Position numbers and translations under genes: made by a program
Part shown: positions 14,101 to 32,011 of the stretch, piece by piece
How positions within the stretch are numbered: position 1 is the stretch's first letter
Layout of the letters: the number at the start of each line of letters is the position of its first letter
Assembly: GCA_038248345.1 (NCBI GenBank)
Contig: JBBRXO010000019.1
Location: 1 to 32,011 of the forward strand
From: Armatimonadota bacterium
GTDB lineage: Bacteria > Armatimonadota > Hebobacteria > CAIYQO01
Length of the DNA stretch: 32,011 nucleotides
Direction: 5' to 3'
The notes under the pieces: model-generated
Seen by the model: only the letters and a program-made list of their open reading frames with translations
Databases searched by the model: none
What the model was told of the DNA's origin: nothing

Positions 14101-14394
14101 ATTCAGCGAATTAGAGAGTGCGAAGAATGGTGTGTTAATGCCACCATAGTCTGGGGCTATTACCGCATCGAATAGCTTCATCGCCTCCAAGCTGATTGGG
14201 GTGCTCCAGGCACGACTGACTAAGGCGATGCCATCTTTGACGAAACGTTTTTCCAACGTTGGATCAATCTTTGTCCCCATCACCAGCACCGTTTTGGTGG
14301 GTGCCGGGTCTTGCGCAAATGCCAGTGAGGTCGCCCCCATAGTCAACAGTAGCGCCAACCCCAGGAACAGTACTCTGGTTAAGTTTTTGTGCAT
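11185..14394 (-). CDS. Large secreted protein with a GATase-like N-terminal region and a degenerate PHP-like domain
   Basis: Signal peptide ending ...SLAFA-QD. LHQYIEAGGS and RQIGKGRV are GATase-like. LIGARSAFSNGKGTIAEYAAAARAEGYSILVMTE follows PHP motif spacing. RBS GAAGGGG. Confidence 0.7.
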   Translation of the reverse strand: MHKNLTRVLFLGLALLLTMGATSLAFAQDPAPTKTVLVMGTKIDPTLEKRFVKDGIALVSRAWSTPISLEAMKLFDAVIAPDYGGINTPFFALSNSLNDYYATSRNLEVLHQYIEAGGSAFISISLAGTAGADGCESMLAPWGARVRAVQIRDDEHSGVKGQYSWTTNIPDSPLTAEVHRIWYPTNCLRWDDMYATSALVLDDKAWQPIVSGMLNSVAAMRVQDAWVPVPNEGAPVMAASRQIGKGRVTVTTISPFCTLLMPYAAGGWVGEANIGPIEGIFMEKGEGELNSDGYRLLLNTLNWLIAETKGAGLGGYTNARFTAQTAAPPVVIPSWTTAWQEGNAKTWKVLIGARSAFSNGKGTIAEYAAAARAEGYSILVMTETFEYLDPLVWANFITACQQASNDELIVVPGLDIADPNQNRFLLIGLRSYPAESLLTTDKKALKQTQFLSLGFGAHLTVIARPSTTPMPQQLYKFASALAVYTYRNGKLVDNGLLPYQWQVNNRSMMFPLATHEIYAPAEVKAAAAAGHQVFTTADTARNAAWYLLIGEQHFWENPAHVYISSGPVITELQSSTGNAHLLTWASDGNQSGASVRIKAQSDVPITDISIIGDHYPIRKWNPNSRNVEQTIFLPHANLRYYYIRVQDALGRTAITPTMVYGIAARYTIRCSDRQNFFGFVWQYTGTDIPDVDLQVPVPDVQEGRGLLPQYHGPDRGDNMASLLDFPYASQVVHVMDSDLDQRYWYALKEDLIYDGKPSQVTTRSRVYAGRVRYSDFGVSEEYREKDQRRPMIIKEVTVRLRMPVTLAEDIFPSFTRIDPKPEYGYTQTDGKVIKGTLEKSYIDLPVGGYAGDMLALSPGIRVGADGTVGFTPGAVKGSLLPKETSWYGRFVKVPAKEKMQEMRTNMGFGVDGTPYQLQIKKGTLDGVAYVASFTAEHFGIAGELKAAAAMPYQLPLAIKGINMNWDAALWRADGAMFPFGVFEGNGWSRLDATKGGIFYAGNIIMADNAQLRLSIINWEKDKISIEMNNPTDAEITALIETPVEITNKFHLREQCVIPAGQIVRFAFPK

Positions 14395-14447: not shown

Positions 14448-17400
14448 TTATTTTCCGACCTGCTGTTCAAATTCCTCGCGGGTCATCTTGCCTGTCAAAT
14501 AGCTATGAGAAAGCATGGCATTGTGCCGTGTATTTATTTCACCGTGAACTAATGCTGAGGCTAATATCGGAATGCTGCTTGCCGCTCCCAGTCGTCCTAA
14601 TGCCACAGCGAGTTGTGAGAGTACCGGGAAGAAATCGTCATCCCGGGCAAACGCCTGCTCTAGCAATGCAAGGGCGCTGCTATCGCCAAGTTGTCCCAGC
14701 GCTATCACAACTGCACAGCGGACACGCCAGCGTTTCACCGCCAGCGGCATCTCCAGTGTCTCGTCGACCCCTTCTGTCCGATCGGAAGCACGGAGCATCA
14801 TGCTCCAACTCCACCAGCGATGCAGTTCAGGATAAGGCTTCTCCGCTTCGCTTTCCTCGAACAAGCGCATTAACACCGGCACCGCTTCAATGATCCGCAA
14901 TCTACCAATTACATCTGCAGCGGCCATCTGAAGCTTCCAATCACCCCCTGCCAATACATTAAGGAAAACCGGCGATGCGGCAATACCAACGTTCTCAGCC
15001 AGTGCATAAAGCTGTGCAGGCGATGTTGGCTGTACAATATCTGAAGCAACGGCGGGGGGAAGGTCAATGACGATTTCACCGGCTGTCGCGTCTAATGTAC
15101 CCTCATATCTCTCACCATTGATGAATACCCGACATGTCCCGGTAGTTGCGACGCGTAAGCGATGGTCTGTTGATCCACTATAGGTAATAAAAAGGCAACC
15201 GGATCGACGAAGGAGTAACAGTCCGTCATTCCATTGCAGATGCATGGTTATACCATCAGGTGTCTTCCCAATCTGTGTCTGGGCTGACGTCCAGCTTAAA
15301 GAAACGGGGATGTTTGCGGATAAGGTAAGCTGCTGGGGGAGCGCTAGCTGGGTTACCTCTATAGCTGCAATGGCCCCGTCCCAGCTCTTTACCGCATAGC
15401 GTGCGTCGGTCTGTCCCCCACCCCAATTAACAACCCCACCATGATGCTCAAGGAGAATATCATCTACTTTGCTGCCGATAGTGACGCGCAGGTTATCGTC
15501 GCTTACGCGGGTAACCGCTACGGCATCAGCAGGACGGTCTACTTTCAGCAATACAGGACCACAAACCGACTCGCCATGAAAAAATGGCGCACTTAATTCT
15601 AGCTCATTTTCGCCTAAACGCAAGCAGCCCGTAACCTCAAACAACTGTGGTAGCATCGTACCGCTTATCCACTGGCTACCGGTATCTGCTTGTACTTGTG
15701 CTTGAACAGAAGTACCATTTACTATACATTTCAGCTCTTTTGGAGCAATCGCCACCTCGACATAATATCGGCACCCCACTTTAGGGATGATACTGTATGT
15801 TCGCTTAAAGCTCCGCCCTTCCTCCGGGAAAAGAGCGGTGTCACTCAGGTACGCGGTGCGGAGTGAAACTACATCCCTGGCGCCACCTATCGTGCGCTGC
15901 CACTCGTCAGACAAGTCATCAAACAACACTGACCGCGCCTGGGGGATGAGCGCGACATCAATGCGTGTCTCCAGCGCTGGTGGCATGGTACATGAGCAGC
16001 GAATGCTCTTACCATCCGGTTGGCTGGGGTACGTTGGAATCTCATCCAGCACACACTGAGCCTCCGCCGGAAATACCAGGTCACATTGCACGAGTTCGGG
16101 GGCCTCGATGATGACACGCTGGTCAGAGAGAACCGCCGGACTACGTAAATAAGCCTGCCATGTTATTGAATGTGGCGATGCGGCACGTACTTGATCAGAG
16201 ATAATGGCATACCTTCCGTCAATTAACAGACTGGTACGCGTCACTGATTCGACATCGTAGCGATCCCGATAATGATCTGTTGCCGCAGAACGCAACACTT
16301 TTAGCGGGTCAAAGGCGTGTAATGCTTCACCAACGCCATGACATGGATGTAACGGGACATACCATGATTCACCATCAAGGATGAGTGTATTTGCTTGTCC
16401 GATATTGCCGTCGATCCCGTAGCGCATGGCGTCTTCCAGGGTAGGTTCCCCACCCCAAGTTACCCGCATGTAATTCTGTAGTGTCTCAAAAACATGCCTG
16501 CCGGTATAGGCTGCTATGGTTTCCACCGGCATCGGCGCTAATTCCTTCGGTAAGAAGATCCTGCCATCCAGCACGAGTGGGCTCCCCAGTGCTTCAAATG
16601 TCACGGAATTCGGGTCGACATGGAAGCGTCCTGCTTGCCCAAGCCCACCACAGATATCCCAATATTGCATGAGGCGGATTTTTTGTCCGGTGTATTGCAG
16701 TGCCCCGCCCACTTCATCGAGCATCCAGTCGGGGGAAACGGCGGGCGCGCCATTATCAATCTCCTGCGGCCACCAGATGAGCGACCACAACCTGTCATCA
16801 TGTCCCCATGCTGGTAAGGATGTGCGGTACCAGAGTTGTGCATCGCGAATAGTGGCCAGAGGCCGCGGGTCGCCAGTCTGTTTAGCCAGCATTACCAGAC
16901 CACACTTGATGTCAGCCGCGCTGAAGCCGTAGTGATCCCAGGCGGCCAGCAAGCCGGCTGGGCTGATTATCTTCCAACTGGTCTGCAACACCGTTATCAG
17001 CGGTCGAAATGACGGTGCCACCCCCTGGGCAAAGACGGGCACGCCAGATATCTCTTCGTATAACATCCCCGACATTGCGATTAGCGGTTGCACCACGCTA
17101 CATTGATAAGCGCTGCCTTCTGATGAATACCCTCCGGCAGGCAAGCGACGAAACTCCTCAGTAAGAGAGGCGAAGCCCACGTCTAATAACGTCCGTGCCA
17201 GTGAATTATCTCCGCGATGTACCCCATAGACATAGCCTACGGTAGCCGCGCAGAAGGCATTAGATAATATCTGATTCTCAAAGATATTAGCCCGCGATAC
17301 TACGTTGGGCCAGGCGAAAGTATAGGCGTGGTCGATTATCGCTTCACTGATTGCTTCATTCTCTGCAGCTGAGAAAAGGTCGCAATCCATCAACCAATCA

Positions 17401-17735
17401 TGCCAGATGGCCCAGCGTGCGAGTGGGGCCACAGTGACGTGTGTGTGCATTTGGGCATCGAGGCTGGTATCACCCTCATTTTTTTGCGCCACAAACCGCA
17501 AAAAACATTCACGAGCGCGCTGACGATCGTCTTCTTTTTCCGTCAGAATTGCTGCCAGCACGGTATACGGCGAATTCCACAGCGGATCCTGCTGTGATAG
17601 GGTGTAAAACTGCTCCCAGTATGGGAATAAGACTGATTGGGGCGAAAGTAGCTTCGCCCGCAATGCTGGTAGAGAACACCCCATCAGGAGTGGGTTACTT
17701 GCCGTTGTTCGCATATAACTCCCTTGCGTGGTCAT
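14448..17735 (-). CDS. Heparinase II/III-like polysaccharide lyase fused to C-terminal HEAT repeats
   Basis: Helical N-terminal domain with GGYSSEGSAY, then FHVDPNSVTFEALGSPLVLDG and ANTLILDG. HEAT repeats AADVIGRLRIIEAVPVL, AVVIALGQLGD and LAVALGRLG. ATG 17735 overlaps the upstream TGA; 17714 is an alternative start. Confidence 0.75.
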   Translation of the reverse strand: MTTQGSYMRTTASNPLLMGCSLPALRAKLLSPQSVLFPYWEQFYTLSQQDPLWNSPYTVLAAILTEKEDDRQRARECFLRFVAQKNEGDTSLDAQMHTHVTVAPLARWAIWHDWLMDCDLFSAAENEAISEAIIDHAYTFAWPNVVSRANIFENQILSNAFCAATVGYVYGVHRGDNSLARTLLDVGFASLTEEFRRLPAGGYSSEGSAYQCSVVQPLIAMSGMLYEEISGVPVFAQGVAPSFRPLITVLQTSWKIISPAGLLAAWDHYGFSAADIKCGLVMLAKQTGDPRPLATIRDAQLWYRTSLPAWGHDDRLWSLIWWPQEIDNGAPAVSPDWMLDEVGGALQYTGQKIRLMQYWDICGGLGQAGRFHVDPNSVTFEALGSPLVLDGRIFLPKELAPMPVETIAAYTGRHVFETLQNYMRVTWGGEPTLEDAMRYGIDGNIGQANTLILDGESWYVPLHPCHGVGEALHAFDPLKVLRSAATDHYRDRYDVESVTRTSLLIDGRYAIISDQVRAASPHSITWQAYLRSPAVLSDQRVIIEAPELVQCDLVFPAEAQCVLDEIPTYPSQPDGKSIRCSCTMPPALETRIDVALIPQARSVLFDDLSDEWQRTIGGARDVVSLRTAYLSDTALFPEEGRSFKRTYSIIPKVGCRYYVEVAIAPKELKCIVNGTSVQAQVQADTGSQWISGTMLPQLFEVTGCLRLGENELELSAPFFHGESVCGPVLLKVDRPADAVAVTRVSDDNLRVTIGSKVDDILLEHHGGVVNWGGGQTDARYAVKSWDGAIAAIEVTQLALPQQLTLSANIPVSLSWTSAQTQIGKTPDGITMHLQWNDGLLLLRRSGCLFITYSGSTDHRLRVATTGTCRVFINGERYEGTLDATAGEIVIDLPPAVASDIVQPTSPAQLYALAENVGIAASPVFLNVLAGGDWKLQMAAADVIGRLRIIEAVPVLMRLFEESEAEKPYPELHRWWSWSMMLRASDRTEGVDETLEMPLAVKRWRVRCAVVIALGQLGDSSALALLEQAFARDDDFFPVLSQLAVALGRLGAASSIPILASALVHGEINTRHNAMLSHSYLTGKMTREEFEQQVGK

Positions 17736-19783
17736 TCTTGGCCACAACAACCAATATCACTGCCATGACGCGTATACATGTTCCGCCCCACTTCACGTAA
17801 AGCAGAAACTAACTCGGTATGCGGGCGATCTGTTATATCCACCAGTCCAAATCCCTGCCTTTCGCCATCCAAATCACGGCCTGTTACCATTTCGTCAATA
17901 TATTGGAACCAATGACACCCTCTGACAAATGGCAGATCAAAACATGCCTGCGTAAAATCATGCGAGAGTTGCGCACGCACAGCAGCATCAGGAGATAACC
18001 AACGTCCACCAAGTAAGCGCGCATCAGTAAGATCGAAACTGTACTCACTGATGACAATGGGACGCTTTACCGCCTCATACCAACCAGTTAGAAATGACGG
18101 CACATCCGCCAGTGTCTGATGATGCCATATGTACCAGTTGATACTAAGAATGTCAATATAGGGCGAGCAACCATCGAGTATAGCCTGGTGTGGCCGCAAC
18201 GCCAGGAAGCGACATCCCCAGAACAGGTGATTTGGATCCGCCGCCTGCAAAGCCGCACGAATTGCGGAGAAGTACCGCGCGGTATATCGACGCATAAATG
18301 AATCGCAGTCATCGGTACCAACTTCCGATAAACCGGGGGGATTTACCTCACGACGATAATGAGCAAGGTGGGCGAAACTGCGAAAACCGGTGCCCCATGC
18401 TATATTCAACTGCTCGATTGTTCGATACTTATCAATCAATTTAGCAAAGAAAAGACGACGGCTTTCCCAATGAGTGGGAAGGGCAAAGGGCGAATTCCAG
18501 AGACACCAGGTCTCTTCATTTTGCACAAAATAGCCCAGCAGGAATTTGTCGTCGACATATTGAGTGAGCTGGGTGAACGCTGATACCACTCGATCAAGAA
18601 AATCAGCATGAAAGACATCGGGAGTTTGGCGAAGAGGGAAGATGGTATCATGCGGATCAGCCAGCAAGCCGGTGAAATCCAGCGGACAGACGCGGTCCGC
18701 GGGGATCAGATATGGGATATCTCCGCCACAGGCATACTCAAGGTCAGACCAATTAGCCAGGGTATTCATACCCCAGGATTGTAAACGTGCAGCCGTCTCC
18801 TCCGCCCAACGCTCGCGCCAGGGTTGGCCGTATTTTTTGATTATATTAGCGCGGTAAAAGTTGACAACGTCCTGACCACACGCATAGGCATATTGGGGAA
18901 ATAACTCTATATCTGCAGGACGATCCTTCCATTCTGATGTCCAACAATTGCGAAACTCCCCCAGATATGGCGGTAAGTCGGCGAATATCTCTTCACGTCC
19001 AGATACACGGGTGGCAGTAACTGTACCCACACACGCAGGACCAAAACTGAGGAAAGGATTCCCGTCGGGAGTTACCAGCCACCATCTACTATCTTCAGCT
19101 TCCAACCGAAATAATGCCCCTGCTTCAAATTGTTGCCCATCCAGCCATCCGCCGAAGCAATCGCGTGATGCTGCTAAAGGCGTTGGAAGCGGTGTTAGCC
19201 CATCTGCTACCAGCTCTGCGTCATTGCCCACTTTACCAGACCACGAGGTGGCGACGGGCTGTCCATATCGATCAACATGCGGGCTAAAGAACTCGGTTGC
19301 AGTTATCTCGTGGAGGCGAATACCGTAGATAATCACCTCGCCGGGTGAAGCGGAGCGCCAGTCCCAGCGTAGATGATCGGCCATTAACGTATCCTGACAG
19401 AGACGGAAAGTACTGGCATCGGTAACGATAGTGGTCAGCTCGGCTACTGGTAACTCGAAATATTCATGCATCTCTGCATGACTGCCCAACCATCCTGCTC
19501 CTCGTGCGCGTGCTCGGATCCGCACCGGTTGCTCCGCATTATGTGCCACATAGTACTCAATTTTCGCTGTATGCAACAGTGGGAGTGCCACATCGCCTTC
19601 ATTATTGGAGCGAAAAATAACGTCGCATTGCACCCCGGCAGGATATTGGAGATGAATAGCATTGCCACAGTGTCTGACGGTAACGCCGCGAACGGGTATT
19701 GCGTATAGATGCTGAAGCGGCATAGTCGCCATCTTAGCCTCATTATTGATATCGGAAAAGCAGTGAAAAATCTCATTTGCCAT
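17732..19783 (-). CDS. GH50-like (beta-agarase family) glycoside hydrolase, no signal peptide
   Basis: VDRYGQ, WWLVTPDGNPFLSFG, NFYRANIIKKYG, RLQSWGMNTLANWS, GYFVQNE (acid/base), DPNHLFWGCRF, IVISEYSF (nucleophile) and GCHWFQYIDE..TGR..DGE...FGLVD. Confidence 0.88.
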   Translation of the reverse strand: MANEIFHCFSDINNEAKMATMPLQHLYAIPVRGVTVRHCGNAIHLQYPAGVQCDVIFRSNNEGDVALPLLHTAKIEYYVAHNAEQPVRIRARARGAGWLGSHAEMHEYFELPVAELTTIVTDASTFRLCQDTLMADHLRWDWRSASPGEVIIYGIRLHEITATEFFSPHVDRYGQPVATSWSGKVGNDAELVADGLTPLPTPLAASRDCFGGWLDGQQFEAGALFRLEAEDSRWWLVTPDGNPFLSFGPACVGTVTATRVSGREEIFADLPPYLGEFRNCWTSEWKDRPADIELFPQYAYACGQDVVNFYRANIIKKYGQPWRERWAEETAARLQSWGMNTLANWSDLEYACGGDIPYLIPADRVCPLDFTGLLADPHDTIFPLRQTPDVFHADFLDRVVSAFTQLTQYVDDKFLLGYFVQNEETWCLWNSPFALPTHWESRRLFFAKLIDKYRTIEQLNIAWGTGFRSFAHLAHYRREVNPPGLSEVGTDDCDSFMRRYTARYFSAIRAALQAADPNHLFWGCRFLALRPHQAILDGCSPYIDILSINWYIWHHQTLADVPSFLTGWYEAVKRPIVISEYSFDLTDARLLGGRWLSPDAAVRAQLSHDFTQACFDLPFVRGCHWFQYIDEMVTGRDLDGERQGFGLVDITDRPHTELVSALREVGRNMYTRHGSDIGCCGQE

Positions 19784-19834: not shown

Positions 19835-21718
19835 CTACAGGAAAGACGGAATATACGGGTTAAGCGAAAAATCAACATCCGTGTTGCTGGTACTGAATCG
19901 GCGCGTTGATATTACATCATTATCGGTATGGTGTAATAACTCGGTAAGCCACTCAGCAGCGACAGTATACCATTCCTCATCCGGGACTTCATGCCCTTTC
20001 CGCGGCATCAGGCATAGGTGTTTCCGCCCCGCCAGGCGTGCATAACAGGCTAGATTTCCAGATACCTGCGAGAGTTCATCTCGTAACCCGATGCTGATCA
20101 ATACCGGCTGGGTAATATATTCGGCAAAATGCGACGGCTCAAAATAGGCCAGCTGCTTGATTACCTGCTCGAAGGAGATCTCATCATCCTGGTAACGGGC
20201 GGCATTGGGTCCCCACTCCAATCCAGTCGGATTTCGCATCTGCCACTCCCATCTATTATTGGTGGGAACGCTAGCGACACACATTTGTATGCGTGGATCC
20301 AGCGCTAACAGCGCAATACCGATAGGCCCACCGCGGCTACCGGCGAAATATACCGACTGCTGCAAATCCGCCATTTCACGCGATGCAAAAAAATCAACCC
20401 AGCGCAGCATATCCAGGTAATTATAGAAAAAATTAGCCGTATATCGATATTGAAGCCCGGTACGGTAAGTGGCTTTACCATCTAATTGATAGGAGAGCAA
20501 AGAACATGCGGGTAACTCCCGCACCCAATCCAGGTGTGGCCCGCACGGAACGCCTATTATCACCGGGTATTTCCCTGGGGCGAGCGGCTCGCGGTAAATC
20601 CCGGTGATTCGCCGCCCGGCATAGCCTGTTATATGGACTTCGTAGGTAGCACATACGTCATCACTTTGCTCCGGTAATAACAAAAAAGACGGATCAATAA
20701 GAAAGTTCCTTTGTTCGGCAATGGCGTTTTGCCAAAAATCCCAAAAATCAGTCGGTCGGTATAATTCAGGGAGATAGTTGTCGATATTATAGACAAATAT
20801 AGCGTCATGATGGGCGATGACGTGCCCACCTTCGATAGCATTTAATTGGACTCGCCACGGCCCGGGGATATCCCAGGGAATTTTCCATGAACTATTATTT
20901 GTCTCACCGATGAGCTGAACTTTTGTACCCTCTTCATAAACAACTGCATCGGTTTGAAAGTCCAAAATTTTAACACGTAGTAGAATGTCACGAGTCTGGT
21001 CTAACAACATGATCGTTTGGCAGATTACGTCGAAAACAAAATACTTCCCGGTGCAAAAATGATGATCCGGCGCCTTACTAATCAATGATAACGTGAGCTG
21101 TTGGGCAGTCCAGGAACTCCGTGGGAGACGTATCTCTCCACATGTACGAACTCCTGCCTGGGCGAATATTATCAGATAGGTACCTTCTTCATCTCTACTG
21201 GTGATAATGCGATTATGAGATATCTCAATCCATGTGCCATTGGGAGCGCTGCAACGTACCAAAGTAGCACCGGCAGCATTTTCCCCCGGTAATGAGTATG
21301 ATACAGCGACGTCTGTAGCCAGGTAAATACGGTACTCCTGCTGCGAGTCGGGAATATCATAACCGATATCCAAGTTGATGAGGTCGGGAGAAAAGCGTAA
21401 AAACACGCCATAATCTTCCGCCGTAAAACGTAAATAATCAGTCCGCATACCACTGAAGGGATGCAAAAGGGGGAGATTATGGCGGAACCAGCCTATCCCG
21501 CCGGCGAGGTGCGAACAAGGACGTAAAAATTCGATGCCACTCACTTTCAGCGATTCGATGCGCCCCTGCTGCACAGCCTTAAAGCAATAGCTGTCAGATT
21601 CAAACTGATAATCGCCACTACTTCTTTTGTGCACTTCGCCATAGACAACATCAACAGCCAGCGGGCGGCTTGTTTGCTCGGATTGAGGCTCTATTAAGTT
21701 GTAGCTTTGCATATTCAT
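19835..21718 (-). CDS. Acetylxylan esterase-like (CE7-like) protein, paralog of 3200-5020, no signal peptide
   Basis: Shares PGPWR, RPxDFWxFW, ITGYAGRR, ATYRTG, LRWVDF, LALDPR, VPTNNRW and LSQVSGNLACY with 3200-5020. ATG 21718 follows GAGGT. Confidence 0.8.
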   Translation of the reverse strand: MNMQSYNLIEPQSEQTSRPLAVDVVYGEVHKRSSGDYQFESDSYCFKAVQQGRIESLKVSGIEFLRPCSHLAGGIGWFRHNLPLLHPFSGMRTDYLRFTAEDYGVFLRFSPDLINLDIGYDIPDSQQEYRIYLATDVAVSYSLPGENAAGATLVRCSAPNGTWIEISHNRIITSRDEEGTYLIIFAQAGVRTCGEIRLPRSSWTAQQLTLSLISKAPDHHFCTGKYFVFDVICQTIMLLDQTRDILLRVKILDFQTDAVVYEEGTKVQLIGETNNSSWKIPWDIPGPWRVQLNAIEGGHVIAHHDAIFVYNIDNYLPELYRPTDFWDFWQNAIAEQRNFLIDPSFLLLPEQSDDVCATYEVHITGYAGRRITGIYREPLAPGKYPVIIGVPCGPHLDWVRELPACSLLSYQLDGKATYRTGLQYRYTANFFYNYLDMLRWVDFFASREMADLQQSVYFAGSRGGPIGIALLALDPRIQMCVASVPTNNRWEWQMRNPTGLEWGPNAARYQDDEISFEQVIKQLAYFEPSHFAEYITQPVLISIGLRDELSQVSGNLACYARLAGRKHLCLMPRKGHEVPDEEWYTVAAEWLTELLHHTDNDVISTRRFSTSNTDVDFSLNPYIPSFL

Positions 21719-21967
21719 TATTATAACCTCATCTGTTTTCCGTAACAACTCGCTTGGAATTAGCTGAGCTATCTAGCAGTGTAATGGGCAATCGATGTAC
21801 TTTTTCAGTAAGTTTTTTTTCTTACTGTTTTCGCTCTGGACGTAATAACTCGGACCCGATCATCAATAAAAATATAGCATAAGCTCCCATGATTATCACT
21901 AGACGAATGACGCATCATCACTGGATAATTATTCGCCATATATATGATGGGAGTTAGTAATAATAAA

Positions 21968-21993
21968 GGCAGGTTATCGTCAGATAACCTGCC
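21968..21993 (-). terminator. Rho-independent terminator of pilin-like gene 1
   Basis: GGCAGGTTATC-GTCA-GATAACCTGCC, followed on the minus strand by TTTATTATT. Confidence 0.75.
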
Positions 21994-22028
21994 CTAAATG
22001 TGCTTACCCTTTTGAATGTCTCAATTCT

Positions 22029-23552
22029 CTAGAAGTAGAGGAAACTAACTGGACCTCTGGTTGTACCTGGACTATCGAAACAGTTTCCATTATATTGGTT
22101 TCCTTTTACTACTCCAGCTGTGGTGGAAGTAATCGACGTAGGTGGCTGGTAATACATATCACCACCAGTGTGTTCCTGTGAATCGATATAGTAGTCTGTG
22201 TTGGCAGCGAGTGTTACCGGCGTCGTCAACGCTACGTATTTGAAATTACCGACCGCTGTTCCGGTAGTCATATTGAGATCTACTGCTACATCAACTGAGG
22301 AACCAGTTTTCGATTTCAGTCTCATGTTGTGTGTGCCAGTCATAGTTGCAATCGCTGGATTGGCCTGGAAGATTCGTCCCAGGTGAGTAACAGTTATAGG
22401 ATTAGCCCCAACGGTAAACCAGAACCCCTGTCGGTATTCGCCCCCATCTGTAGAACCAGTGCCCAAACTAATACTGGTGCCTGTGACAAAGGGAATAGGA
22501 GGATTAATTACCACGCTGATCGGAGGGGTTGTGCCACCATTACAGGTCGCAGAAATGGTATATGTCGTTGCAACTGCTGGCATGGGGAATGTGATGACGC
22601 GCTGAGCGCCCGCAGGATGGGGAAGCACGTCTGGTGAAATCGTCCAGGTTGCATTTGCACCGGTAGCAACACCGTTCTCGTTTATAACGAAAGTATTGGC
22701 ACCCGCGGCAGCAGGTACTGGTGCCACTAAAACAAGATCAGCGACAGTGACAGTGAAAGCAGGATCAACTCCATTGGTCACCGTGAAGGTGCTGCCAAGA
22801 GCCGCTGACGGGAAGGAGATAGTGGCGGTCATCGCTGGTGATGTTGGCGAAACGGTAGTGCCCGCGCATGTCCAAGTAACTGCACCCTTATCAGTGACGA
22901 ATTGTAAGTTGCCACCAGCGGAAGATACCTTGTTAACGCCGCCAGCGACACCAACAGTGAAAGTTGCAGCCGGTGATACAGCGTAAGCAGAAGCAGCGTT
23001 ATTCCAGGTATCCTTGTTGGTGGCCTGTACGCGATCGACATGACCATCCAGTGCTGCGAAGAAGAAACCACCGGCATGGCGGGATTCTTTAACATCACCA
23101 AGACAAAAAGCGATGTTCGGCATTGTAGTACCGACGCCGGTATGCGCCCCATCGGCAAGGATCCACACAGCCGTTGGATCGCTAGTACCAGCTGTACCCA
23201 ATGCTACGCCAGAAAGCGAGAAGTTATAAACATACCCATTCGCGGTAGCAATGTTCGGGCAACGTGTTACGTTGTTTGCTAGCGCTAATGTAGCCAAGTC
23301 GGATGATAGTGAAGAGGTCAGTTTCAATGACTGCCAGATAGTGCCAGCATCCGGTAACAGTTCGTCGTGCTCTTGTGTGTACATACTAATGGCAATAGCC
23401 AGTTGGCGCTGGTTATTCATGCACTGTGTCTGGCGGGCCTTCTCGCGGGCCTTGGAGAACACGGGGAATAGGATGGCAGCCAAAATTGCGATAATCGCAA
23501 TGACTACCAGTAACTCGATGAGGGTGAACCCTCGACGCTGAGATGAATTCAT
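22029..23552 (-). CDS. Type IV prepilin-like protein (N-methylation motif, DUF1559-like, H-X9-DG) with two Ig-like repeats and a C-terminal DUF4082-like module
   Basis: [55 protein letters not shown]-terminal [18 protein letters not shown]...[21 protein letters not shown]. Confidence 0.9.
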
Positions 23553-23589
23553 GACTTTTCTCCTTTCAAATATCAGGGTTCAGCCATAA

Positions 23590-23677
23590 AGATTTAGCTA
23601 AACCAAGTATTATATTATTCGCTAGATTGCCTACCGTCAATAGACAATCTGCGCATTTTTACTGAACAAATTTCACA
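23590..23677 (-). promoter_or_regulatory. Promoter/operator region of pilin-like gene 1
   Basis: TTGACG (23640-23635), 17 bp, TAATAT (23617-23612). Upstream 33-bp block at 23645-23677 and an AGATTTAGCT motif are both shared with gene 2. Confidence 0.7.
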
Positions 23678-23849
23678 ATTCGCACTATAATCATTAAAAG
23701 AAATACTGATATCAGTACCATTTGAGACTCGAAAACAGAGGCCAACCTGATAGTATCCTATTTTATGAATAAAAAGTATACATGGCGAGGTAATTGCATT
23801 ATATCATAGTTTGATCACTGCAACATGTCGGGGTGTGGATAAAAAAGAG

Positions 23850-23887
23850 ATGCATGACAGGTTATAGATCAATAACCTGCCATGCAT
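23850..23887 (-). terminator. Rho-independent terminator of pilin-like gene 2
   Basis: ATGCATGACAGGTTAT-6 nt-ATAACCTGCCATGCAT, then CTCTTTTTT on the minus strand. Shares the CAGGTTAT/ATAACCTG core with terminator 1. Confidence 0.75.
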
Positions 23888-23926
23888 AGTTGATCTGATA
23901 TTTAGTTGTTATCTTTTTGAATATTA

Positions 23927-25435
23927 TCAGAAGTAGAGGAAGTTAACTGCACTATCAGCTTTGCCAGGGTTACCTACAGCGTTCCAGCCGCCATTAGGAG
24001 CTTGACGATATGCCTGGTTAATGGCTGACCCTGCTGTCGAAACTATGGTGAATGACCTATAGAATGTATCAGCAGCTTCTAGTGATACCAGGAAATATGA
24101 TGTACCAGCGGTGAGAGTTACAGGCGCAGTCAGCGGGACATACACATATTGCCCATCCGTTCCACTGGCCACGGATACGTCGACGGTTGCCAGCGTCGTT
24201 CCACTACTACTGGCAATTATCATATTATGTGTTCCACTATTACCGGCAATTTTTAATCGCCCCAGACTGGTTACGGTAATATTACTAGCTCCCACCGTGA
24301 ATTTCATTCCCATATAGTAATTCCCGCCGCCACTGCTATCGGCAGTAGCGCCAGTAGGCGAACTGGAGGTGTTAAACGGCACTGGCGGTGTAATTGAGAC
24401 CAGTAGCGTGTTAGTACTCCCGTCGGGGATTGTCGCCTGAATAGTGTAAGGCGTTGCCGATACCGGTGTTGGGAAGGTTATGGTGTACGGAGACACGCTG
24501 ACGGTCAACGCCGGGCTGACTGTCCAAGTTGCTGGCCCGCTATAAGGAGTCCCATTAACTGAAATAGTAAAAACGGAAGCGCCGATACCCGGTGTTCCCA
24601 CAGGAGCAAGGACGATATTCCTCACAGTGATAGTTGAAGCCGGATCGATCCCATTGCTCACCGAGAAGGTGTTACCTTCAGCCGCCGGGGGGAAACTGAT
24701 AGTAGTAACTAGCGCTGGTGATGATGGTGTGTTTATGACACCGGCACTCGGGGTCACTGTCCAAGATACAGGGCCTTTATCGCTGATGAATTTGACCGGG
24801 CCACCCTGTGGAGTGATCCCCGATCCTACCGGACCAGCGACGAAAGGAACTAACGTGGAAACAGCATAGGGTCCGGCTTTACTATTCCAAGTAGTATTGT
24901 CTGTTGCCTTCACGCGCTCTACATGGCCGTCAAGGGCTGCATAGTAGAAACCGCCAGCATGGCGCGTCTCATTAACGTCGGCCATGCAGAATGCCACATT
25001 AGGCATGGTGGAGCCAGCAGTGATGTGTGCTCCATCAGTGAGAACCCAGACTGCCGTCGGGTCATTGGTGCCAGCTATCCCCAGAGCTTCGCCGGAAAGC
25101 ATAACATTGTAGACATAGCCATTGGCTGCAGCCTTATTGGGACATCTGGTGACGCTGTTTGCTACCGCTAACGCGGCTTGGTTGGATGACAGCGCGGTAG
25201 TCAGTTTCAGCGACTGCCAGATTGTGTTGGCATCCGGCATAACTTCGTCGTGCTCTTGAGTGTACATACTAATGGCAATAGCCAGTTGGCGCTGGTTATT
25301 CATGCACTGTGTCTGGCGGGCCTTCTCACGGGCCTTAGAGAACACGGGGAATAGGATGGCAGCCAAAATTGCGATAATCGCAATAACTACCAGCAGTTCG
25401 ATGAGGGTGAACCCTCGACGCTGAGATAAATCCAT
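23927..25435 (-). CDS. Type IV prepilin-like protein, tandem paralog, with C-terminal DUF4082-like module
   Basis: Same [11 protein letters not shown]-terminus; [16 protein letters not shown]-terminal [18 protein letters not shown]...[12 protein letters not shown]. Confidence 0.9.
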
Positions 25436-25463
25436 GACTTTTCTCCTTGCAAATTGATCGACC

Positions 25464-25566
25464 AGATTTAGCTATGAAAGATTTAGCTGAATCTTATATC
25501 ATATTATTCGTAACACCATCCACTGTCACTATTCAATCTGCGCATATTTACTGAACAAATTTCACA
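25464..25566 (-). promoter_or_regulatory. Promoter/operator region of pilin-like gene 2
   Basis: GTGACA (25529-25524), 17 bp, TAATAT (25506-25501). 33-bp block at 25534-25566 and two AGATTTAGCT copies at 25464 and 25479. Confidence 0.7.
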
Positions 25567-25613
25567 TGAAGAACTATTTTGCATGAGAGTTGGTTAAGAT
25601 TCTCTGTCGTTAT

Positions 25614-25653
25614 AGCAATGGCACATCCGTCGTCACCAGAATGTGCCATTGCT
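25614..25653 (-). terminator. Hairpin downstream of the 1960-aa gene
   Basis: AGCAATGGCACAT...ATGTGCCATTGCT, a 13-bp stem; weak U-tract. Confidence 0.6.
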
Positions 25654-25674
25654 TTCTAAAGCTACGCAGAATGC

Positions 25675-28600
25675 TTATTGCTTCCCAGCTGCCAGTGAGC
25701 TGATCTCTGCGGCGGACAGTACCCGGTTGTAGATGCGGACTTCGTCCACTTTGCCGGGCCAGTAGTCGGCGCCGCTTACGGTACGTGCAGCATTGATGGT
25801 AGTGGCGGTAGCAGTATTGGTGGCGGTCGCAGAAGTGGCCACCTGGGTACCATCAATATATAGCAGGTTGAAGTTGCCGGTTGTGCCGTTCTTTACATAG
25901 GCTACGTGATGCCAGGCACTAGCCGTCGGTAATGTGGTGGTGGTCACCAGTGGCGTACCGCCATTCTTCCACGCGCCGAATACGGTGGCGCTATTGTAGC
26001 CCAGATATATCCCGGAGCTAGCGCCAGTAACACCGACAGCAGTTTTGCGAACTGTCGGGGTGGCAGTAACGTAGAACCAGCAGCTTACAGTCTGACTTGC
26101 GTTGGCCGTCGGTAGCCCGGTAGCGCTGCCTTTGGTCACATACTGGCTAGTGCCGTTGAACTGCAACGCAGAGCTAATTTTGCCAGTCGTCCATGTTGGC
26201 GTTCCTGTTAACGTTCCTACATTGTTTGTGCCCGAAGAGTCGCCGGCGCTGGCGCCAGTGTTCTCGTTGAATTTCCAGAAGCACTTCAGCGCGCTGTCCG
26301 TTACCGTGTAAGTAATGGCAGCGGAAGTTGTGCTGACGTTGTTATTGTCGAAGGCTTTCGCCGTCAGGCTTATCCCACTGGCTCCACTGGCAGCTACACT
26401 AGTCCAGGAATAGTTCCATGGAGCGATTGTGGTAGTGCCCAGTAGGATACCATTGTTGTAGAACTCCACTTTGCTGATGGTACCATCGGAATCGGCAGCA
26501 TTAGTAGTGATGGAGATCGTCGCCGGTGCGGTTGTCGTACCACCGGTGATCGGAGAAGTGATGCTCACTATCGGAGCTGCGTTTACGCGGATGTTCACCG
26601 CTGTGGAAGTAGTAGCTGCTGAAGCATTATCAGTAGCTTTCGCTGTTACGGTATAGCTACCGGCTGTTACTCCCATCCAGTCATAGGTGTAAGGAGCTAC
26701 CGTATCGGTATTCAGCAGAGTAGCTCCGTTGTAGAATTCCACCTTGCTGATTATCCCGTCAGTATCAGTGGCCGTCGCCGTCAGGGTGACAGTAGCAGGA
26801 GCGGTGGTATATACCTGACCTGCAGTAGGAGCGGTGAGGCCCACTGTCGGGAACAAATTGCCGTATTTAAAACTTACCGGCCCATAGGAGTAGTTTGCCC
26901 CGCCGACACAATTAAAAGACCATACTTTGCAATCAATTTGTGCTGCTTGCGTGGGAGTAAGAAGTACACCATCCAGGAATGAATCGCCGCCATCATGTTC
27001 CTGGCTTTGCACATAATAAGAGGTGTTGGCGTCGAGTGTAAGTACGGCTGGTAATTCGACATATTTGAACTGCCCAACGGTACCACCAATCATCGTGATA
27101 TCAATAGATGCTATGGTGTTATTATTACTCGCCCGAACTAGTCGTAGATTATGAGTACCACTATTACCGGTGAGCATATATCTCCCCATATGTGAGAGAT
27201 TTATTGCAGTTGCGCCCACTGTAAATTTAAACCCCTGATAGATCTCACCACCATCGGTTCGCAGGTTTCCATTCGCTATAGAACGCACGAATTCCACCGG
27301 CCAGATACGTGTATAGTTGCCGCTAAGCACGTCACTCGTTATACAACCAGTTTTATAAGCGATGGCCTTCACCGTGGTGAAGTTCTGCGTACTATTGATG
27401 GTGATTGGCATTGTATATATCGTACCATTAGTCTCACTGGGAGTACTGCCATCCGTGGTATAGCGGATTATAGTATCCTTCGTTCCGCAACTAATAGTCA
27501 TTGTTTGTGCACTGGTGTAGATACCAGCAACTGGGGAAAACGTCGGCTTCAGACATCCATTGTAAAGGAAATCTAACGGTACATAGCAGGTATTAGCCCC
27601 TCCGACCCAGTTCCATCCTCCACCTCCACCGGGTCGATATGCTGAACCATTAACTGATGCCACTGACGTTGTACTCAACGTAGTAGCACCATCATAGAAG
27701 GTGTCGCCCCCTGTAACTTCCTGACATCCCAAGTAGTATGAAGTTCCTGCCGGCAGGGTTACCGCCGACGACAGTTCTGCGTATTGATACTGCCCGACTG
27801 CTCCAGTGGTCATTGATACATTAGCTGAGGCGATGGTCGCGCTATCGCTTACTCGAACCAACAACATACTATGGGTGCCGTAATTACCATTCAACATGTA
27901 GCGCCCCAGATGGGTAACGGTAATCGGAGTTGCACCAACAGTGAACTTCATTCCCTGATAGTAATCTCCTCCGGCGGTACGCAATGAACCAGGGGTAACA
28001 CCTGTAACCATCGGCACAGACCAGATGATGCTATAAGATCCACTCTGAACATCACTATCTAATAATCCACTCTTATATACAATGGCCTTCAAGTTACAGC
28101 TGGCATCAATGAGTACTGAAGTACTGTAAACAGTGCCTACTGTCGCACTTGGTGTAGTTCCATCAGTGGTATAGCGAATAGTCGCCCCGACGGTATTAGT
28201 GGATATCGTCACGTTTTGCACGGCAGTGTATGAACTTGCAAGTGGAGTGAAGCGCGGTGTATCGCATTGTTGTTGACCTTGCCAAGCGGTTGCGTATTTG
28301 AAGTTTACCGGTACATACGAGGTGTTCGTTCCATTTATGAGATTCCATCCACCACCACCACCAGGGCGATATGACGCCCCATTGACCGTGGCGACTGACG
28401 TTGCAGATATGACGGTATTCCCCTCATAGAAGGTATCACCGCCGGTTTGCTCCTGACTACCCAGATAATATGCGGTATTGGCTGCCAGTGTCACCGGTGA
28501 AGATAGTAACGCATAGGTAAATTGCCCCACCGTGCCCCCGCTCATGGAGATATTAACAGAAGCCATGGCGCCTCCATCAGATGCTCTAACTAAAAGCAGG

Positions 28601-31557
28601 TTATGCGTTCCACTGTTGCCACTTAATTTGTAACGGCCCAGATGAGTGATCGTTACCGGTGATGCACCGACAGTTAACTTCGTCCCCTGGTAGTAATCTC
28701 CCCCGTCAGAACGAAGATTTCCCGGCGTCACTGAGGTGACGAAAACTGTGGGGGTACCTTCATAGTATTTGTTACCATAGACGGTTACTTTATAGGCTTT
28801 ACCCGCTGTCGTGATAGTTACCGTCCCGATATTGACACCTTCATTCATCGATGCTGCGGTACAAGTGACCGTTATATTTTGACAGGCATTCTCATTACTT
28901 ACGGTTCCACTAGTTGATGACAGGCCGATCCAGCCAGCGTCTGCCGAGGCGCTCCAGTTCATCGAGGCAGTGCCAGCGTTCCAAATGGGTAATGTGCCGG
29001 TTGCGGTATTATCTCCTTGCGGTATGGTAATATCCAACACCCGCACAGGGAGCGTCAAACACTCTGATAAAGGAGAACCGTACGTGGTCTGAAAGCCCGT
29101 ATAGCTGTTCTCGCGCAACCCCGCAATAACCGGTGGAATCAAATACGAGATTCCCAATGATCCGGTATATACACCTGTTCCCAGTGAGAAGATGTTGTTC
29201 GTGATCGCGTTGCCACCAATGATTGAAAAATAGGGGTTGGTGGCCCCCACAGTACCCGAGTTTATATTCAACGCATTCACGGTTTCAAAAATGTTTGTTG
29301 TCGTCATAGGTGTCGGTAAGGTAACACCAGGATAAGGCGTACGATTAACGCTTGAATTCGTGTCGCATTGAACATTGAAAACCGATCCTGCCTGGCGAAC
29401 TGTATTGTGACGAAAAACGTTTAGTGATTCAAATTCCCCGACGATTGTGGCGACGTTACTCTTAATATTAGTAAACGTGTTATTCGTGATCAAGCATGAA
29501 GACGCCGGTTGTGTAGCGAGCCACCCGGATTGCCCATTCTGCGTATTAGTGTACCCACGTAACACCACACCAGCTTGTACGTTCAACACCGTATTACGGT
29601 CATAAATAAAATCTGTTCCACCATCATAGATGCACAGCCCGGTACTTCCAGTTCGACCGGAAGTGTACTGGCCCGACTTGGCGGCGAAACTATTATGATA
29701 AATGGCGTATTTTGCCGGCACCATTGAAAGAACAATTGTACTCGTTGAATCAGGGATGACATCCCAGGCGCGATCCACAGTAGTCTCCAATGTTGATGAA
29801 TTGTATGACACGTACCGGCGTCGTTGCCCAGCGCCTTTCCCGGCAATTACAATTATCTGCGGTAAATAGCTATCCCAGGAGCTGCTCCACGTCAGATTAT
29901 TGAACTTCATCATGGTGCTACCGGTGATCTCGATGCTGTTGGTGGTGCCTAACGAAGGTGTGTTCTCGAAGAGTACATTTTCACCGACATTCTGGTCAGG
30001 GCACGCCGGGCGCACGCTCATATCAGTCGTTGTATTATCGCCTAGATAGACATGATAAGATGCGCCGGTATCATTGTAAAACCAGCGCCCCATGCACCAG
30101 CCCGCCGGGTCATTGGGATTTGAATTATCATAATCCTGCGCTGTGCAATTCGTTACACTCATCTCACGCATCTGCTTCACCGGTAACAGCACTGCCGACT
30201 CGTGAGTGCCATAAAAATCAACCTGGTCTAGGAAAACCTGTTTGCACGCGCCTTCAAAGTCTGTGCACGGTGAGATTATTTTACACCCACTCAACAGTAT
30301 ACGCTGGCAACTGGTAAAGATGAGCGCGCTATCGTAGCCAGATTTGAGGCGGACACTCTGCAAGCGTATATCGGCACTAGAGTTCGCAGACAATTGAGAA
30401 CAGCCACTCGCCGGTTTTGCAGATTGATCTATGGTCATATAACTAATATCAACCACACCTGCGCTGCCAAATTGCAGCATATGGTTATTTGCAGGAATGG
30501 TGGAGAATGCGACAATTTTGGTAGCCATCGAAGAATCGTCCATACCATCCCCTAGTAACCGGATGCCATATAAATCGGCTAATTGAGCGCTGATTATATA
30601 GGTTCCCGAAGGAAAATAGAGCGTGCAACGCGAGCCGCGATTTGCGGTGATCAAAGCGTTGATGGCTGCGGTATCGTCGGTGTACCCATCGCCGACCACG
30701 CCATAACTCTGTACGTTGAGGATACCGCCCGTCCATTGCACCCCATCGTTAACGGTCAAGGTTTGCGGTCCACTCCAACCATATTCACCACCACGCCCAT
30801 TGTGTATCCATATCTCATAGGTTCCATTCGCCAAAGATGCAGGTACGGTGAAATCGACTTTATTGGGGTTCGCCGCCGTAACGGTAAGCCATTGTCCTGC
30901 TCCGCCGCTAGGCTTTAGGTATACCCACGAGGTATTCGTCCCTATGTGAGTACTCTTATAACGGGCGAGATTACGACCAAAAGCGCTGACAGTCTGTCCA
31001 CGTGTTGCTACATTCGGGCCAACCCACCACAATTCTGTGCGATTTATTGCGAGCGGACGCCCAAAGCCAGCATTGTTACGTGGCCAGAGAAGATACATGG
31101 CATCATCAGGCAATGCTGCGGGCAAACGAATAATGCCGTTCGTAATGAGACCATTACTATTGGCCTCCATACTCATAATCTCCGCAGGCATTTTAACGGC
31201 ATCATTGGCGGTAGTCTGGCCATAAGCCAGATACTGCGTGTCTTTTCCGTTGTTGACGCCGGTATATCTGGAAATCGCATCACCCGTCAAGGCTAATGAT
31301 TCTCCGGCATCGACAGTACGCGTGTATTCTGCCATCACCGGCGTCCCGGATACCGGGGCTTGTACATCGACAGGGGGGATAAAGATTGACATCTGCACCG
31401 GAAGCGTTGGATTATCTGCCGGTTGCGTTTTATCCGACATGTCCGGATACGTAGCTGCCACACCGGCAGTCGAAGAAGTCGCCAGGAGAAGAAGTAATGT
31501 CATCCCCTGCAGTACCAGCCGGCAGTTGCCGGCCATGATCGAAATTGCCTTTTTCAT
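25675..31557 (-). CDS. Giant secreted multidomain glycan-active protein: pectate-lyase-3-like beta-helix, BACON-like, 3x DUF4082-like, 2x chitobiase-C/FN3-associated, 2x Ig-like, C-terminal LamG
   Basis: Signal peptide; NVQSYGVVGDGYTDDTAAI...LYFPSGTYII; WSASADAGWIGLSSTSG; IRYTTDG(T/S)TPS twice; DGxISKVEFY twice; WKFNENTG...WHHVA...GKVDEVRIYNRVLSAAEI. RBS GAGGT. Confidence 0.88.
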   Translation of the reverse strand: MKKAISIMAGNCRLVLQGMTLLLLLATSSTAGVAATYPDMSDKTQPADNPTLPVQMSIFIPPVDVQAPVSGTPVMAEYTRTVDAGESLALTGDAISRYTGVNNGKDTQYLAYGQTTANDAVKMPAEIMSMEANSNGLITNGIIRLPAALPDDAMYLLWPRNNAGFGRPLAINRTELWWVGPNVATRGQTVSAFGRNLARYKSTHIGTNTSWVYLKPSGGAGQWLTVTAANPNKVDFTVPASLANGTYEIWIHNGRGGEYGWSGPQTLTVNDGVQWTGGILNVQSYGVVGDGYTDDTAAINALITANRGSRCTLYFPSGTYIISAQLADLYGIRLLGDGMDDSSMATKIVAFSTIPANNHMLQFGSAGVVDISYMTIDQSAKPASGCSQLSANSSADIRLQSVRLKSGYDSALIFTSCQRILLSGCKIISPCTDFEGACKQVFLDQVDFYGTHESAVLLPVKQMREMSVTNCTAQDYDNSNPNDPAGWCMGRWFYNDTGASYHVYLGDNTTTDMSVRPACPDQNVGENVLFENTPSLGTTNSIEITGSTMMKFNNLTWSSSWDSYLPQIIVIAGKGAGQRRRYVSYNSSTLETTVDRAWDVIPDSTSTIVLSMVPAKYAIYHNSFAAKSGQYTSGRTGSTGLCIYDGGTDFIYDRNTVLNVQAGVVLRGYTNTQNGQSGWLATQPASSCLITNNTFTNIKSNVATIVGEFESLNVFRHNTVRQAGSVFNVQCDTNSSVNRTPYPGVTLPTPMTTTNIFETVNALNINSGTVGATNPYFSIIGGNAITNNIFSLGTGVYTGSLGISYLIPPVIAGLRENSYTGFQTTYGSPLSECLTLPVRVLDITIPQGDNTATGTLPIWNAGTASMNWSASADAGWIGLSSTSGTVSNENACQNITVTCTAASMNEGVNIGTVTITTAGKAYKVTVYGNKYYEGTPTVFVTSVTPGNLRSDGGDYYQGTKLTVGASPVTITHLGRYKLSGNSGTHNLLLVRASDGGAMASVNISMSGGTVGQFTYALLSSPVTLAANTAYYLGSQEQTGGDTFYEGNTVISATSVATVNGASYRPGGGGGWNLINGTNTSYVPVNFKYATAWQGQQQCDTPRFTPLASSYTAVQNVTISTNTVGATIRYTTDGTTPSATVGTVYSTSVLIDASCNLKAIVYKSGLLDSDVQSGSYSIIWSVPMVTGVTPGSLRTAGGDYYQGMKFTVGATPITVTHLGRYMLNGNYGTHSMLLVRVSDSATIASANVSMTTGAVGQYQYAELSSAVTLPAGTSYYLGCQEVTGGDTFYDGATTLSTTSVASVNGSAYRPGGGGGWNWVGGANTCYVPLDFLYNGCLKPTFSPVAGIYTSAQTMTISCGTKDTIIRYTTDGSTPSETNGTIYTMPITINSTQNFTTVKAIAYKTGCITSDVLSGNYTRIWPVEFVRSIANGNLRTDGGEIYQGFKFTVGATAINLSHMGRYMLTGNSGTHNLRLVRASNNNTIASIDITMIGGTVGQFKYVELPAVLTLDANTSYYVQSQEHDGGDSFLDGVLLTPTQAAQIDCKVWSFNCVGGANYSYGPVSFKYGNLFPTVGLTAPTAGQVYTTAPATVTLTATATDTDGIISKVEFYNGATLLNTDTVAPYTYDWMGVTAGSYTVTAKATDNASAATTSTAVNIRVNAAPIVSITSPITGGTTTAPATISITTNAADSDGTISKVEFYNNGILLGTTTIAPWNYSWTSVAASGASGISLTAKAFDNNNVSTTSAAITYTVTDSALKCFWKFNENTGASAGDSSGTNNVGTLTGTPTWTTGKISSALQFNGTSQYVTKGSATGLPTANASQTVSCWFYVTATPTVRKTAVGVTGASSGIYLGYNSATVFGAWKNGGTPLVTTTTLPTASAWHHVAYVKNGTTGNFNLLYIDGTQVATSATATNTATATTINAARTVSGADYWPGKVDEVRIYNRVLSAAEISSLAAGKQ
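26863..28746 (-). repeat. Three intragenic ~150-aa DUF4082-like repeats (~28294-28746, ~27562-28017, ~26863-27297)
   Basis: Each has LRxxGGxxYQGxK(F/L)TVGA...H(L/M)GRY.L.GN.GTH...TL.A.T.YY...QE..GGD.F. Confidence 0.85.
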
Positions 31558-31869: not shown

Positions 31870-32010
31870 TTACACCTTCGATATCTCCACGAGCATCATG
31901 CCCAGATCTGCGATAGTTTCAGAAATGTTGAGCTGCCCCATCTCGGTGATTACGGTTTTAACCCGAGACATTGGCTCCTGGGCATCCCGGAGGCGGCATA
32001 ATTGTGGCGG
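31870..32010 (-). CDS. Partial CDS (C-terminal 46 aa), possibly a glycoside hydrolase beta-sandwich tail
   Basis: Open frame PPQLCRLRDAQEPMSRVKTVITEMGQLNISETIADLGMMLVEISKV* followed by a hairpin; only a weak resemblance to GH39-type C-termini. Confidence 0.45.
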   Translation of the reverse strand, partial: PPQLCRLRDAQEPMSRVKTVITEMGQLNISETIADLGMMLVEISKV

Positions 32011-32011
32011 A

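Follow-up and report, generated by a model that had tools for sequence, protein, structure and literature searches.

Two predicted modular pilins from an Armatimonadota glycan locus share a DUF4082-like module with secreted proteins and belong to an expanded family with variable tails

The two pilins described here appear, on balance, to belong to a family of modular pilins with swappable, probably glycan-binding tips that are drawn from the accessory-domain pool of secreted proteins. Their genes lie in the window, the whole stretch of 32,011 nucleotides that was analysed; it is a glycan locus that encodes two AXE1 esterases, a GH42-like protein, a CBM9 and AraC regulators. Together with the gene of a 1960-aa protein they form three consecutive minus-strand ORFs; the initial annotation ended the third gene too early, since it runs to 31557:

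22029-23552, minus strand: pilin A gene, 507 aa, with a class III signal, an H-X9-DG head, putative Ig-like spacers and a DUF4082-like tip
23927-25435, minus strand: pilin B gene, 502 aa, 55% identity to pilin A
25675-31557, minus strand: large secreted-protein gene, 1960 aa

Both pilins start with a class III signal, composed of a short hydrophilic leader, a G|F site, E5 and a hydrophobic tract (G|FTLIE in both), and hold an exact H-X9-DG motif at aa 159-170. The N-terminus of pilin A matches PF07963 with 37.6 bits and TIGR02532 above its cut-off. Mature pilin B without its tip was modelled (pLDDT 84.5) as a 51-residue helix (residues 3-53, pLDDT 86-96), a globular head and two Ig-like domains, and the best Ig structure aligned to the spacers with Z 8.1 and rmsd 2.3 over 76 residues. 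The fold lists of this head-plus-spacer model were filled by Ig domains and held no pilin. The Ig-like spacers of pilin A are assigned by homology to pilin B, and both proteins are predicted to follow the order pilin head-Ig-Ig-module. In line with the initial idea of display on a pilus, the models suggest that both are modular pilins presenting a beta-sandwich tip on two Ig-like spacers. The parts of the two pilins are as follows:

23466-23552, minus strand: prepilin N-terminus of pilin A, aa 1-29, with G8|F9 and E at mature position 5 (PF07963, TIGR02532)
23043-23078, minus strand: H-X9-DG of pilin A, aa 159-170, located in the sequence
22032-22751, minus strand: pilin A aa 268-507 (second spacer and module), matching a secreted protein of contig C28
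24872-25411, minus strand: predicted mature pilin moiety of pilin B (N-terminal helix and globular head, with H-X9-DG at 24926-24961)
24386-24844, minus strand: two predicted Ig-like spacers of pilin B, aa 198-272 and 273-350

The same succession of class III signal, pilin moiety, Ig-like spacer and C-terminal beta-sandwich is described for PilC and PilB of Streptococcus sanguinis (PMC9934059, PMC8179133). PilC is a pilin-Ig-lectin modular pilin whose tip is proven to bind glycans (PMC9934059), and over 1,200 modular pilins in 264 architectures, LamG and PA14 tips included, are reported in PMC8179133. As these papers describe it, the pil locus of S. sanguinis encodes two modular pilins, whereas the H-X9-DG head is found here on dozens to over 100 dispersed paralogues; in addition, the tips of the Armatimonadota family are exchanged with secreted proteins, and glycan binding, shown for PilC, is here predicted only. 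The window pilins also resemble the DUF1559 (PF07596)/H-X9-DG (TIGR04294) proteins, reported to be among the largest planctomycete gene families (PMC4807772), in that they match PF07963 and PF07596 above cut-off, hold the motif and belong to a large family. They are unlike typical DUF1559 proteins in the tails of 180-400 aa after the motif and in matching PF07596 (37.5 and 30.8 bits, cut-off 23.3) over profile positions 2-32 of 268 only. The 22-position model TIGR04294 had one match in the genome, on contig C27, and none was listed for the window genes.

The 1960-aa protein has an N-terminus that looks, by eye, like a signal peptide. It contains a right-handed beta-helix, a BACON domain, three modules alternating with Fn3-associated domains, two Big_7 domains and a LamG domain. 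The beta-helix is recognised by PF12708 and by ESM Atlas clusters (0.97), and only about 60 of its residues match GH55 and epimerase structures. Because this beta-helix family has no assigned activity, the term glycanase used initially for the protein is a presumption:

30298-30720, minus strand: pectate-lyase-like beta-helix, PF12708, aa 280-420, 68.9 bits
28780-29010, minus strand: BACON_2, aa 850-926
25699-26157, minus strand: C-terminal LamG / concanavalin A-like domain, aa 1801-1953

The statement that one module occurs five times in the three consecutive genes was confirmed. The copies are 147-156 aa long with pairwise identities of 39-65%, and pilin copies match enzyme copies with 82-114 bits, against 24.6-26.2 bits for the best matches to 200 shuffles of the large protein:

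22032-22499, minus strand: copy 1, pilin A aa 352-507
23930-24385, minus strand: copy 2, pilin B aa 351-502, DUF4082 above cut-off, predicted PHR-like beta-sandwich
28291-28752, minus strand: copy 3, 1960-aa protein aa 936-1089
27559-28020, minus strand: copy 4, 1960-aa protein aa 1180-1333
26860-27300, minus strand: copy 5, 1960-aa protein aa 1420-1566

By the sequence comparison with DUF4082 that had been suggested, the module is DUF4082-like. PF13313 recognises the pilin B copy with 40.3 bits (cut-off 28.4), whereas the other four of the five copies are below cut-off (three, at 18.6-24.2 bits) or unmatched (one); DUF4082 is also the top ESM Atlas match (0.96), and choice-of-anchor R (NF041539) weakly matches three copies. 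In the searchable part of the literature, the term DUF4082 is mentioned once in each of two papers. A model from an 80-sequence alignment (pLDDT 92.5, all beta) predicts a PHR-type beta-sandwich fold. PHR domains are the best structural matches (Z 12.4, rmsd 2.8, 134 aligned), followed by the lectin-like domain of Cwp84 (Z 10.5), virion proteins (Z 8-10), esterase CBM-type domains (Z 7.5 and 6.7) and F-lectins and CBM32/62 at about Z 6, a value near which fold scores are common. To our knowledge, the PHR domain is not a known lectin. No solved (PDB) sequence matched the module below E 0.05, and Foldseek gave no match at E 0.001 or better.

In 473 copies from outside the family, R43, H53, E103 and D106 (numbered as in the pilin B module) reach 99% conservation, followed by Y82 (91%), R17 (90%) and W108 (88%). 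From the strand order, the first four would gather at one end of the sandwich in a site-like arrangement, or they may have a structural role. R17 is present in the three enzyme copies and in four pilins of relatives but is lost in pilin A, pilin B and the C28 copy, and all five window copies have Phe or Tyr at the position of the conserved tryptophan. As R17, an arginine shared by 90% of the 473, is missing from both pilin copies, it is doubtful that these bind the same target glycan as the enzyme, as had been proposed. A complex prediction for enzyme module and pilin module gave a score of 0.01 (mark 0.32, no folded controls) and is evidence neither way.

The module is promiscuous and occurs on subtilases, glycanases and, in the phylum, PEP-CTERM proteins. 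A profile search found it in 2,879 cluster representatives (E 0.001 or better); the module at the C-terminus of the pilins is thus found on many non-pilus proteins, a scatter over unrelated proteins that the initial annotation had named as speaking against its own proposal. Among the best 150 representatives, a list that favours multi-copy proteins, 149 hold 2-16 copies and the sole pilin is pilin B itself. Thirty-one representatives were scanned for other domains, and only 6 have one of CAZyme type while 5 are subtilases, so that the ligand may not be a catabolic glycan; others carry NHL, RHS, RCC1, FG-GAP, lectin or only Ig domains. In a survey of the phylum, 44 of 401 genomes matched the module, and at the 26 loci examined outside the family it was never on a pilin and was in 12 cases the only domain of a PEP-CTERM protein (L074-L091). 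Two further genes of the same genome, beyond the window locus, carry it.

The trio of pilin, pilin and enzyme was not found in any of the 11 family relatives. Genomes G003 (99% complete) and G009 have two module pilins each, in which the module directly follows the head, and no further match; G006 has the module only in a beta-helix protein, and it is absent from the other 8. The expected co-occurrence of module pilins with module CAZymes is therefore not conserved. The pilin B module found 6 matches among proteins of 276-879 aa, none of them another pilin; the G003 module found 26, of which 4 are pilins. Scans for similar loci with the module alignment (genome contigs) and with the pilin A tail (metagenome contigs) yielded no confirmed relative.

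A dedicated pilin-enzyme pair, or docking of the enzyme onto the pilus as initially considered, is unlikely, because the pairing is not conserved among relatives and glycanases are not enriched beside family pilins (see below). Cellulosomes use two different domains, cohesin and dockerin. A cellulosome-like form, in which the enzyme modules would bind the pilin modules and tether the enzyme to the filament, fits the adjacency and common origin of the copies and the near copy of the pilin A tail on a pilin-free secreted protein (C28). Nevertheless, we give it hardly any credence, as the same domain stands on both sides where cellulosomes pair cohesin with dockerin, one protein may hold up to 16 copies, and the module occurs on pilins without the enzyme, on the beta-helix protein without pilins, and as a single domain with PEP-CTERM. 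The module common to the pilins and the enzyme would rather reflect one accessory-domain pool drawn on by recombination than an obligatory co-assembly.

Several comparisons point to such a pool. Residues 268-507 of pilin A share 63% identity with the C-terminal part of G000:C28:16239-20597 (66% over 728 nt in the DNA), a secreted, pilin-free protein whose locus also encodes GH65, GH116, GH39 and a sugar ABC transporter. The FGE-like tail of a pilin on contig C72 shares 76% identity over 291 aa with one domain of a TIG-repeat protein (G000:C71:3-3911), and in this genome 5 of the 11 long tails have counterparts among non-pilin ORFs. A tree was built from 57 modules, 12 of the family and 45 taken from the 473 at one per protein. 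It places the C28 copy in a single clade with the five window copies (98/96), which upholds a common local origin of the five copies with the C28 copy inside. Pilin A and C28 are sisters (100/99), such that the closest relative of the pilin A copy lies at a different locus, and the pilin label requires at least 3 changes on the tree. As judged from these sequence comparisons, tails are exchanged repeatedly between pilins and secreted proteins.

The head, in turn, belongs to an expanded family. That of pilin A was matched 22 to at least 150 times per genome in the 12 genomes of the family (E 1e-8, other pilins included), the counts of three genomes being lower bounds. At E 1e-20 the 11 relatives had 15 to at least 111 head matches, against 0-20 in 19 other genomes of the class, a contrast that is partly an effect of distance from the query. 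H-X9-DG proteins had been said to end, as a rule, soon after the motif; in this lineage long tails are the rule. In this genome, 11 of the 14 motif-bearing genes have tails of at least 200 aa, a further one is truncated at the end of its contig, and the other two are short. From the relatives, whose genomes are kin, 67 distinct pilins were sampled by head similarity (4 by the module), of which 63 are complete with the motif, and 60 of these 63 have tails of at least 150 aa. All 1770 pairs of heads match (median 54%), whereas only 99 of 1770 pairs of tails do. The 62 tails fall into 27 clusters, and Pfam names 15 of them (LamG 5, DUF4082 4, F5/8 3, Big_1 2, PKD 1) and none of the other 47.

Each pilin gene is apparently its own expression unit, an arrangement that would allow the cell to choose tips by regulating single genes. 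The elements that suggest this in the window are the following:

21966-21995, minus strand: terminator-like hairpin 3' of pilin A
23850-23887, minus strand: terminator-like hairpin 3' of pilin B
25620-25660 (approximate limits), minus strand: hairpin past the stop of the 1960-aa gene
23553-23680 (approximate limits), minus strand: upstream block of pilin A, with promoter-like hexamers and a ribosome-binding site
25436-25570 (approximate limits), minus strand: upstream block of pilin B

The two upstream blocks are duplicated (79% over 158 nt, first codons included) and each pilin gene has its own hairpin, so that the pair resembles a tandem duplication of a single expression unit. We found no regulatory element shared by all pilin paralogues; only close paralogues are alike upstream. 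In contigs of run X1, perhaps the source sample, the head of each pilin is continuous with its tail (0-1 differences). For the order of the genes the original assembly is the basis, since no listed X1 piece crosses the repeated 5' ends of about 140 bp.

We counted neighbours by hand around 20 pilin loci, which are kin and not independent, and around control regions of the same contigs, with proteins cut at 900 aa; 2 of the 20 control regions were dropped as they held pilins. LacI/AraC-type genes lie near 10 of the 20 pilin loci and 2 of the 18 control regions (Fisher p 0.015), and many family pilin genes in the relatives would thus stand close to LacI- or AraC-type regulators. CAZyme domains were found at 7 of 20 loci and 8 of 18 controls (p 0.74), and their enrichment beside family pilins was rejected. 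Several pilins sit among housekeeping genes, one module pilin of G003 among DUF881, RsgA and ligase genes.

These counts bear on the idea that the tips serve adhesion or act as decoys, with proteins, minerals or cells as ligands or for phage evasion, the sharing with the enzyme then being neutral shuffling. The top fold matches to PHR domains and virion proteins agree with it, and so do the module's presence on subtilases and on NHL, RHS and RCC1 proteins and the lack of CAZyme enrichment. We consider it highly improbable, however, for the recognised tails are mostly of LamG and F5/8 types (12 of the 15 named by Pfam are LamG, F5/8 or DUF4082), LacI/AraC-type regulators are enriched nearby, and the tails are swapped whole and not varied by substitution.

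The genome encodes a prepilin peptidase (G000:C38:11215-12213), assembly and retraction ATPases, platform proteins and secretins, unlinked to the window locus. They include a PilB-PilT-PilC-PilD cluster, further ATPases with a second PilT, and five secretin matches; both PilT-family ATPases are over cut-off, and three PilB/GspE-type ATPases are below both equivalog cut-offs. In the mechanism that we favour, the pilins would be processed by PilD and then enter a type IV filament as minor or tip subunits, so that the conserved H-X9-DG head carries a swappable tip, likely displayed at the surface, with probably a glycan as ligand.

SusD and SusE-like surface glycan-binding proteins are lipoproteins paired with a SusC transporter. 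The SusE-like proteins of Bacteroidota resemble the window pilins in their tandem Ig domains and terminal beta-sandwich (BT4661 is among the Ig matches, Z 6.5). In contrast to such systems, SusD (PF07980) had no match in the 96% complete genome and the window locus has no transporter; the one match to the TonB-dependent receptor family PF00593 is on another contig, and no SusC/SusD-type locus, with SusD and a paired TonB-dependent transporter, was found.

A capture system specific to this locus would fill that role, with the pilin tips and the three modules of the enzyme binding the same polysaccharide and retraction delivering it to the enzyme and the envelope, much as SusD delivers to SusC. 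The single clade of window and C28 copies, the glycan genes of both loci, the two PilT-family ATPases and the lack of a SusD match beside a single TonB-dependent receptor in the genome are all in its favour. A type IV-like pilus has also been linked to glycan attachment in Akkermansiaceae, where pilus-type proteins of the Akkermansia MUL2 are proposed to attach to complex glycans; as described there, MUL2 is one conserved four-gene locus and not a family with variable tips (PMC13174399). We still judge such a dedicated system unlikely, given that the trio is absent from all 11 relatives, the conserved arginine differs between pilin and enzyme copies, hairpins lie between the three genes and CAZymes are not enriched near pilins.

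The pilins may, on the other hand, not polymerise at all. Their helix would then be an inner-membrane anchor, or a short pseudopilus would hold the tip in the periplasm, where it could bind or sense oligosaccharides or guide the export of a secreted partner. A hundred or more paralogues with bulky tails could not all be core subunits, to judge from the tip-only fit described for S. sanguinis (PMC9934059), and the low scores of the three PilB/GspE-type ATPases would allow a T2SS-like use. Two of the paralogues share a tail that resembles, by eye, phosphate-binding proteins, one of them (C158) having no Pfam match. Sugar-binding proteins of Sulfolobus also carry class III signals (PMC3047682). 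The bindosome of this archaeon is like the window pilins in placing ligand-binding domains on class III signals and in its link to sugar use, and differs, as described, in using ABC-type solute-binding proteins and a dedicated Bas system, with neither an H-X9-DG head nor beta-sandwich tips (PMC3047682, PMC6668835). We regard this non-filamentous alternative as improbable: tandem Ig spacers, found in this genus, suit extension from a surface, the module is also on PEP-CTERM and large adhesin-like proteins, and pairing of pilins with a large neighbour in this genome was not significant (only 3 of 13 loci, or 5 of 15 genes, had a gene of at least 900 aa no more than two genes away, against a background of 16%, with 3 of 18 genes dropped by the crude gene set).

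We thus return to modular pilins with swappable tips, of which a stronger form can be entertained, though we hold it rather doubtful: a library of interchangeable tips, up to 100 or more, in which one conserved H-X9-DG head would insert into a retractile type IV filament, recombination would recruit the tips from the accessory domains that secreted glycanases carry, and regulators responsive to sugars would decide on the tip produced. If true, pili would here take the place of SusC/SusD in foraging, and a function would be found for the DUF1559/H-X9-DG proteins, which in polysaccharide-degrading phyla rank with the largest gene families that lack one. Glycans would be the ligands of the pilin tips by this reasoning, and if the tips are lectins, one genome family would hold hundreds of uncatalogued binding modules together with a SusD-free foraging route. 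The tips should be folded, expressible domains, some of them near copies of secreted-protein domains, and hence testable without culturing. We found no description of long-tailed H-X9-DG pilins in Armatimonadota in a literature search that did not extend to most subscription papers or to the supplements of PMC11535203 and PMC8179133; the main text of PMC11535203 does not discuss pilins.

Some other pilin genes of these genomes deserve mention. Short pilins of the genome studied here are on contigs C10 and C47. The pilin with the FGE-sulfatase-like tail lies at L005:4537-6135 (G000:C72), and its tail domain is on over a dozen ORFs of the genome. The pilin-like proteins at L007:246-1808 (G000:C158), G000:C48:7158-8726 and G000:C18:5085-6404 have tails that look, by eye, like phosphate-binding proteins, without a Pfam match in the case of C158; that of C48 has a degenerate signal, and the N-terminal helix of that of C18 is absent from the open frame. 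At G000:C117:4014-5612, the signal region of a long-tail pilin is swapped for unrelated sequence, perhaps by insertion. In G004:C17 (L043:5131-6370) a pilin ends 78 aa past the motif and is followed by an overlapping ORF that is 59% identical to the tail of a neighbour; it is probably a frameshifted paralogue. At L038:11409-13011 (G003:C151), phage scaffold and capsid genes lie about 2 kb from a module-bearing pilin.

Within the window, an 80-bp element is repeated in inverted orientation at 21869-21948 and 3027-3106 (77% alike), in each case upstream of a gene for an AXE1 esterase (19835-21748 and 3200-5020), and is possibly a shared regulatory site. A reverse transcriptase ORF of 521 aa (PF00078), possibly of a group II intron, occupies 503-2068. 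Two long ORFs of the glycan locus (11185-14394, 1069 aa, and 14448-17750, 1100 aa) are almost without family match, C-terminal HEAT repeats in the second being the sole one. The 141 bp at 31871-32011 are identical to G000:C57:17536-17676 and form a contig-end repeat of higher depth. Finally, a 66-bp piece at G000:C3:26004-26069 (L096), just downstream of another long-tail pilin gene, is 97% identical to window positions 25673-25738, the 3' end of the 1960-aa gene, and is possibly a recombination scar.
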